A DNA stretch of 64,000 bases from Octopus vulgaris (Eukaryota), in the NCBI GenBank assembly GCA_951406725.2, contig OX597841.1, forward strand, positions 11,098,001 through 11,162,000, written 5' to 3'. Positions 39,943 through 40,792 of the stretch are shown piece by piece; the first letter of the stretch is position 1; every line of letters starts with the position of its first letter. A model generated the notes under the pieces. It was not told the DNA's origin, made no database searches, and worked only from the letters and a program-made list of their open reading frames with translations. Both the position numbers and the translations under genes were made by a program.

Positions 39943-40050
39943 GTGGTGGAGAGGGGTGACACCTATCCAAGTGAGGTGGCTGCTACAGTACAGAGGGTGA
40001 TGGAATATCTAAATTTCTCCCACCCATACAGACTCGTGTGGCAATCTAAG
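39943..40050 (+). CDS. FECH: Ferrochelatase exon [36 protein letters not shown]
   Basis: tataccccag| ... AAG|gtgagt, 108 nt, phase 0/0. RGDxYPxEV and YRLVWQSK motifs. Confidence 0.98.
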
Positions 40051-40570
40051 GTGAGTGACTCATTGAGTGATGATGGAGAGTGGCAGTCTAAGGTGAGTGA
40101 CGATGGAGAGTGGCAGTCTAAGGTGAGTGACGATGGAGAGTGGCAGTCTAAGGTGAGTGACTCATTGAGTGATGATCGTGAGTGGCAGTCTAAGGCGAGT
40201 GACTCATTGAGTGATGATGGAGAGTGGCAGTCTAAGGTGAGTGATGATGCAGAGTGGCAGTCTAAGGTGAGTGACTCATTGAGTGATGATGGAGAGTGGC
40301 AGTCTAAGGTGAGTGACTCATTGAGTGATGATGGAGAGTGGCAGTCTAAGGTGAGTGACTCATTGAGTGATGATGGAGAGTGGCAGTCTAAGGTGAGTGA
40401 TGATGGAGAGTGGCAGTCTAAGGTGAGTGATGATGGAGAGTGGCAGTCTAAGGTGAGTGACTCATTGAGTGATGATGGAGAGTGGCAGTCTAAGGTGAGT
40501 GACTCATTGAGTGATGGAGAGTGGCAGTCTAAGGTGAGTGATGATGCAGAGTGGCAGTGTAAAGTGAGTG
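40051..40570 (+). repeat. Minisatellite of 14 units (42/30/39 nt) duplicating the exon end and 5' splice site
   Basis: Unit gtgagtga[ctcattgagtga]tgatggagagtggcagtctaag. All unit lengths are multiples of 3. Confidence 0.97.
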
Positions 40571-40792
40571 ACTCTGGTGAGACCAATGTCTTGTGAGTGA
40601 GATTCATGACACAAACTGCACAGAAACTAAATTTGTTATGTGTATGCATGTCTGTGTGCAGGTAATATATATATGTGTATGGATGTATATATATATATAT
40701 ATGTATATGTATGTATGTATATATATGTGTATATGTGTATATATATATATGTGTATATGTATATATGTGTATATATATATGTATATATGTGT

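Follow-up and report, generated by a model that had tools for sequence, protein, structure and literature searches.

A minisatellite at the exon 7/intron 7 boundary of octopus ferrochelatase repeats the 5′ splice site in frame, and the main mRNA uses the first donor

In the 64,000-nucleotide stretch of Octopus vulgaris DNA analysed here (the window; GCA_951406725.2, contig OX597841.1, positions 11,098,001 to 11,162,000), the end of exon 7 of the ferrochelatase gene (FECH) and the 5′ splice site that follows it are repeated in tandem. Combining the sequence with assembled DNA and RNA contigs and with retrieved proteins, we consider it likely that this is a locus-specific minisatellite whose host gene splices its main mRNA at the first donor, that the extra donors are passed over and that the array is a tolerated passenger. 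The host gene occupies the middle of the window:

19102..52235, + strand: FECH (ferrochelatase) coding span, 10 exons (tblastn with P0002; one GT-AG solution found)
19102-19214, 23678-23800, 28102-28250, 31099-31171 and 33502-33670, + strand: FECH exons 1-5
37928-38026, 39943-40050, 47562-47726, 50437-50493 and 52041-52235, + strand: FECH exons 6-10
39943..40050, + strand: exon 7, 108 nt, its end equivalent to human K304
40051..40056, + strand: authentic 5′ splice site AAG/GTGAGT, taken by the main mRNA (RNA contigs)
47562..47726, + strand: exon 8, its start equivalent to human V305; contains the pi-helix motif and provides the acceptor partner of the donors

The gene is intact: spliced at 40050, FECH encodes 416 aa that match P0002 of Octopus sinensis exactly, and the complete open reading frame, with the conserved lip loop and pi-helix motif present, belongs to the ferrochelatase family (PF00762). 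The first-pass annotation of this DNA, made from the letters alone, had named ferrochelatase as the host and had placed the junction in a conserved loop, and both assignments hold for the intact 10-exon gene: by comparison with human ferrochelatase, the exon 7/exon 8 junction is K304/V305, which falls inside what one report, in the sections available, calls the ‘metal sensitive loop’ (Q302-Q314; PMC9133952) and another, likewise available in part, the lower lip (300-311; PMC11203519). Intron 7 is 7.5 kb long and AT-rich. The 41-codon exon 2 (23678-23800) is undamaged in the window but missing from both O. vulgaris database proteins (P0108 and P0109), probably because the exon was skipped or the annotation has a gap there.

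The array and the sites created by it lie at the start of intron 7:

40038..40574, + strand: minisatellite with 14 extra donors (sequence, TRF and a script on donor words)
40178..40183, + strand: weak frame-breaking GTGAGT (ATC/GT) at +127, from a point variant in unit 4
40594..40596, + strand: first in-frame stop on read-through, overlapping a weak frame-breaking CTT/GTGAGT at 40593 (+542)

The first repeat unit starts 13 nt inside exon 7 and spans the authentic exon-intron junction, which is confirmed in RNA. Donors follow positions 40050 (authentic), 40092, 40122, 40152, 40194 (GC), 40236, 40266, 40308, 40350, 40392, 40422, 40452, 40494, 40533 and 40563 (AAA/GT), with unit lengths of 42 nt (seven units), 30 nt (six) and 39 nt (one). 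All 14 offsets from the authentic donor are multiples of three, and the donor frame stays open up to the TGA at 40594-40596. Twelve of the extra donors read AAG/GTGAGT, one AAG/GC and one AAA/GT, and their use would insert 14-171 aa into the protein, the last unit yielding WQCK. On each of these points (number, spacing and type of the donors, the open frame, the insert lengths and the read-through stop), recounting in the sequence, by script for the donors and units, agrees with the first-pass annotation, which omitted the two weaker frame-breaking GTGAGT sites (40178 and 40593). The TRF score (576 for a 72-nt period) puts the array far beyond chance, and the read-through peptide gave only sub-threshold matches against Pfam.

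The anatomy of the units points to a local origin. In the 42-nt unit, 11 nt from the start of intron 7 are followed by an 18-nt filler and by 13 nt from the end of exon 7; the 30-nt unit lacks the 12 nt between two TGAGTGA direct repeats of the 42-nt unit, and the 39-nt unit lacks one TGA from its TGATGA run. Point variants among units alter at least four amino acids and weaken two donors, and nothing in them suggests constraint on the protein. All 12 exact matches of the 23-nt unit core in the 2.8-Gb genome lie in this array, and a DNA search with the locus returned, besides the array, only an exon copy on contig C3, which indicates that the unit is locus-derived and not a dispersed element. 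We suggest that a single duplication may have joined 13 nt of exon, 11 nt of intron and an 18-nt filler built of local TGAGTGA words, and that slippage or unequal exchange would then have multiplied the duplicated unit, with the 30-nt form arising via loss of the 12 nt between TGAGTGA repeats and the 39-nt unit via loss of TGA. The first 13 bases of intron 7 (40051-40063) form a near-palindrome (self-duplex -16 kcal/mol, in a region that folds somewhat better than shuffles; z -2.5) that contains a TGACTCA core and is also found in the 42- and 39-nt units; this near-palindrome may have promoted the first duplication.

The same core, which we take to be an AP-1-type motif, raises the question of whether the array acts as DNA or pre-mRNA, either as an intronic enhancer (with eight AP-1-type TGACTCA cores) or as a set of extra U1 sites that would shield intron 7 from premature cleavage. 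U1 sites are known to protect introns in this way, the array holds 12 extra perfect U1 sites, and 8 of the 17 plus-strand matches to TGA[CG]TCA in the window lie within it. However, one motif copied by a repeat counts as a single event, and the motif was found post hoc; we regard such a role as very unlikely.

Given that tandem repeats make up one third of the window and that no contig spans the whole array, an assembly artefact had to be weighed. Eight of 24 listed sequencing runs (four DNA-type and four RNA, with three organism codes, the RNA coming from four study codes) were examined as assembled contigs, and the 42-nt cycle or variant units were found in all eight. Contigs of the DNA-type runs X2 and X3 pass from exon 7 into unit 1 (to 40074), and a contig of the DNA-type run X1 links the last unit to unique flank (40535-40663). 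A 72-nt contig, a rotation of the 42-nt cycle, occurs in X2, X3, X7, X14 and X16, and 102-nt contigs over variant units occur in X4 and X5. With unit-bearing contigs in every run and contigs that join the array to its flanks in X1-X3, the view that the array is an artefact is almost certainly wrong, although the exact copy number could still be off; the array is real, and it is present in several individuals. The ratio of array to single-copy DNA depth is approximately 1.5, 2.0, 3.7 and at least 10 in the four DNA-type runs, versus 6 expected from the window, but the depth of a contig does not measure copy number and none of the contigs covers the array from end to end. Exon 7 also carries a silent C/G difference at window position 40035 (the window and X7 have C, whereas X2, X3, X14 and the C3 copy have G). 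Three other tandem arrays in the window are very homogeneous, two of them in FECH introns (40793-42751, 250 nt × 7.8, 99%; 24820-26701, 188 nt × 10, 98%) and one at 9968-11562 (105 nt × 15, 98%); these represent recent amplifications or long-read assembly expansions.

RNA contigs identify the donor that the main mRNA takes. In all four RNA runs, the main FECH contig (depths 86.4, 872.4, 50.7 and 14.8) joins the reference at 39941, coming from upstream exons already spliced, and departs from it at 40052, that is, at the first donor plus the GT with which exon 8 begins. The letters past the junction in X14 are those of exon 8 (window 47564-47593), so that the join is read directly in one of the four runs and inferred for X4, X5 and X16. 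The first donor (40050) is the dominant choice in the main mRNA; as contigs drop rare variants, a small share of splicing at the +42 or +72 donor would escape notice. Array-only RNA contigs are also present in all four runs, at depths of 2.6, 5.3, 10.6 and 6.9, and none of them ends at a donor. Divided by k-mer multiplicity (3.5-6), these depths come to approximately 1-2 per run while FECH depth spans 60-fold, and although depth is a poor measure, a level that stays flat regardless of FECH depth suggests background more than a fixed isoform share. Array RNA fits unspliced RNA or DNA background. The stretch 40053-40188 and the 3′ flank have no RNA cover, a gap that was given no weight as evidence of absence.

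The FECH array belongs to a known class, the exon-intron-boundary minisatellites (F7 type, or ‘mirage’), and its closest counterpart is the 37-bp VNTR of human F7 intron 7, in which, according to the available sections of the report, the first unit spans the junction, the donors are reiterated, only the first site is used and even stop-free pseudo-sites stay unused (Borensztajn et al. 2006, PMC1557585). The two share a first unit at the boundary, identical downstream donors, use of the most upstream donor and a failure to find structural masking. They differ in that F7 has 37-nt units with 4 exonic nt, 5-9 copies, a weak donor (CV 74) and mostly frame-breaking sites, whereas octopus FECH has 42-, 30- and 39-nt units with 13 exonic nt and 15 donors, near-consensus (AAG/GTGAGT), all in frame and stop-free. 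At other human loci treated in the accessible part of the same report, longer junction repeats of 10-18 copies in LMNB2 (100 bp) and PDGF intron 4 (81 bp) leave the authentic donor as the only one used, as in the FECH main mRNA, and two pseudo-sites are used besides the authentic one in intron 2 of the interferon-inducible gene 6-16 (IFI6) and in intron 13 of CBS (31-bp VNTR) (PMC1557585), the CBS VNTR having 16-21 junction-spanning units in the portion available of a further report (PMC2630376). As far as these partial sources go, CBS and 6-16 resemble FECH in that exon end and donor are repeated (15-25 times there) in an enzyme or housekeeping-type gene, and differ in their use of two pseudo-sites, the main contigs of FECH showing the first donor and being blind to minor use. 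The IFI6 minisatellite unit may likewise be in frame, and CBS activity reportedly varies with the CBS VNTR. Among invertebrates, the ‘mirage’ minisatellites of amphioxus (Adh3, TnC, BflGb6/BflGb9 and PGBD5) are described, in the sections available, as boundary duplications that leave regular splicing undisturbed (PMC3087553, PMC3902484). Like the FECH array, they have mixed unit lengths (Adh3, 10-72 bp); in contrast, they belong to a different phylum, their length instability is shown where that of the octopus array is only hinted at, and those sections make no mention of frame preservation. No report on an octopus FECH boundary array was found in the literature searched.

The first-pass annotation had offered, as one of its readings, strong silencing of the decoy donors. 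That these donors are mostly unused agrees with the first donor in the main contig of all four RNA runs and with Octopus and Argonauta proteins without the insert, but dedicated silencing is not needed given the F7 precedent of plain positional priority (PMC1557585). Masking of the extra donors by RNA structure was tried and rejected: the opening energy is 2.3-3.8 kcal/mol for the true donor versus 0.1-6.2 kcal/mol for the extras, several of which are more open. By analogy with F7, we consider it likely that the first donor is engaged first, through a 5′-to-3′ priority in which the exon is defined from the acceptor of intron 6 and U1 is loaded during transcription. Some leak is plausible, given that in F7 minigenes CAG/gtgagt pseudo-sites, from which the FECH sites are one base away, drew off 70-90% of splicing when the site upstream of them was weaker (PMC1557585, available sections); the first FECH site, however, is equally strong. 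Any small leak would give an NMD-invisible enzyme with at least 14 mostly acidic or polar residues in the conserved catalytic loop, probably inactive and at a level too low to matter.

A larger leak would make the array a splicing QTL comparable to the CBS 31-bp VNTR: an appreciable minority of transcripts would be spliced at the nearest extra donors, and functional FECH would be reduced by the length or unit order of the array, in a way that is not adaptive. The strength of the extra donors, the pseudo-sites used in 6-16 and CBS, the array RNA in all four RNA runs and the position of the insert in the metal-sensitive loop (Q302-Q314) are in keeping with this, and the depth ratios that vary among DNA-type runs give a weak hint of length variation (depth being no copy number). 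Yet array RNA fails to scale with FECH depth, the main contigs pass through the first junction without a break and none of 110 proteins carries an insert, such that we judge a leak of this kind to be unlikely, if worth keeping in mind. That some tissues or stages use the nearest extra donors to make a stable, NMD-invisible FECH with an acidic insert, so that a length-variable array would set haem output and protoporphyrin accumulation in a heritable manner, is a long shot. The array would matter more if leak scaled with its length and altered haem synthesis. With the first site dominant here, the rule that the ‘most upstream donor wins’ now also covers a mollusc and donors of high strength. 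The donors being identical and near-consensus, and their products all predicted to escape NMD, the array has a modest value as a clean natural test of 5′ splice-site choice. RNA-seq junction counts would not be skewed by decay, as they are in arrays, such as F7, that mostly break the frame.

The other proposal of the first-pass annotation, a ladder of length isoforms or a repeat that tunes haem output, found no support in RNA, the main contig of which exits at the first donor, or in proteins. Scoring the best 7999 candidates of 381-2000 aa gave 107 ferrochelatase matches, to which three cluster members were added (n = 110), and no insert-bearing ferrochelatase was found among these. The loop motif is contiguous in 106 of the 110; three of the four exceptions diverge straight after the junction like mis-spliced models and one does not match the motif used. 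All five cephalopod FECH records (annotated Octopus and Argonauta) lack the insert. Two top non-octopus protein matches were considered as insert carriers and rejected, being whole-segment duplications in gene models. Ferrochelatase is a homodimer. A selected, regulated ladder with its own function would account for all 14 offsets being in frame and stop-free, but in a homodimer an in-frame dead subunit would be worse than one cleared by NMD, the unit variants lack any sign of protein constraint, no such protein or transcript was found in the proteins and RNA runs examined, the unit lengths are not independent and eight changes would create no stop, by chance, in 55% of cases. We hold such a ladder to be extremely unlikely.

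Frame preservation in three unit lengths had been read as a hint of selection, and here the preservation stands and the hint is weak. It follows largely from unit anatomy, in that the 30- and 39-nt units derive from the 42-nt unit by internal slips, so that the lengths amount to approximately two free one-in-three events and not three. When the filler is shuffled, it lacks a stop in 48% of cases; combined with these two events and with the 55% for eight random point changes, this gives approximately 3% overall. For comparison, 22 other donor-word arrays of this genome were taken among the matches listed (the first 100 of 342), omitting 11 near-pure microsatellite loci and two further copies of one array; every spacing was a multiple of three in 5 of the 22, and 2 of the 22 (9%) were also stop-free. 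The triple-donor pattern itself is not enriched genome-wide (342 matches versus 1622 in a reversed control). These arrays are a rough neutral yardstick only, since upstream open frames of at least 20 aa matched Pfam in 0 of 13 cases and the arrays may still adjoin exons. An in-frame, stop-free array has a chance probability of approximately 3-9%, only mildly unusual, and the array was picked post hoc, so that the preserved frame speaks for selection weakly at most. The two other in-frame, stop-free donor-like arrays, L010 (G000:C1:97241628) and L031 (G000:C2:149234708), have 36- and 30-nt units, respectively, and no recognisable coding exon was found upstream of either.

The exon copy on contig C3, which the first-pass annotation did not mention, is an orphan (L002:938-1610, G000:C3) that reproduces window 39370-40052, that is, part of intron 6 and the whole of exon 7, at 97% identity. 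It lacks the array and stops two bases past the donor, where a dispersed SINE-like repeat begins. As the copy ends in GTCG, similar to the first letters of exon 8, a spliced retrocopy was considered; it was rejected because these letters belong to the adjoining dispersed repeat. The exon contig of X2 and X3 continues into the array without interruption, so that some individuals may lack the orphan. A 14-nt direct repeat flanks the whole insert (L002 867 and 1748), which suggests that it may be a retrotransposed chimera.
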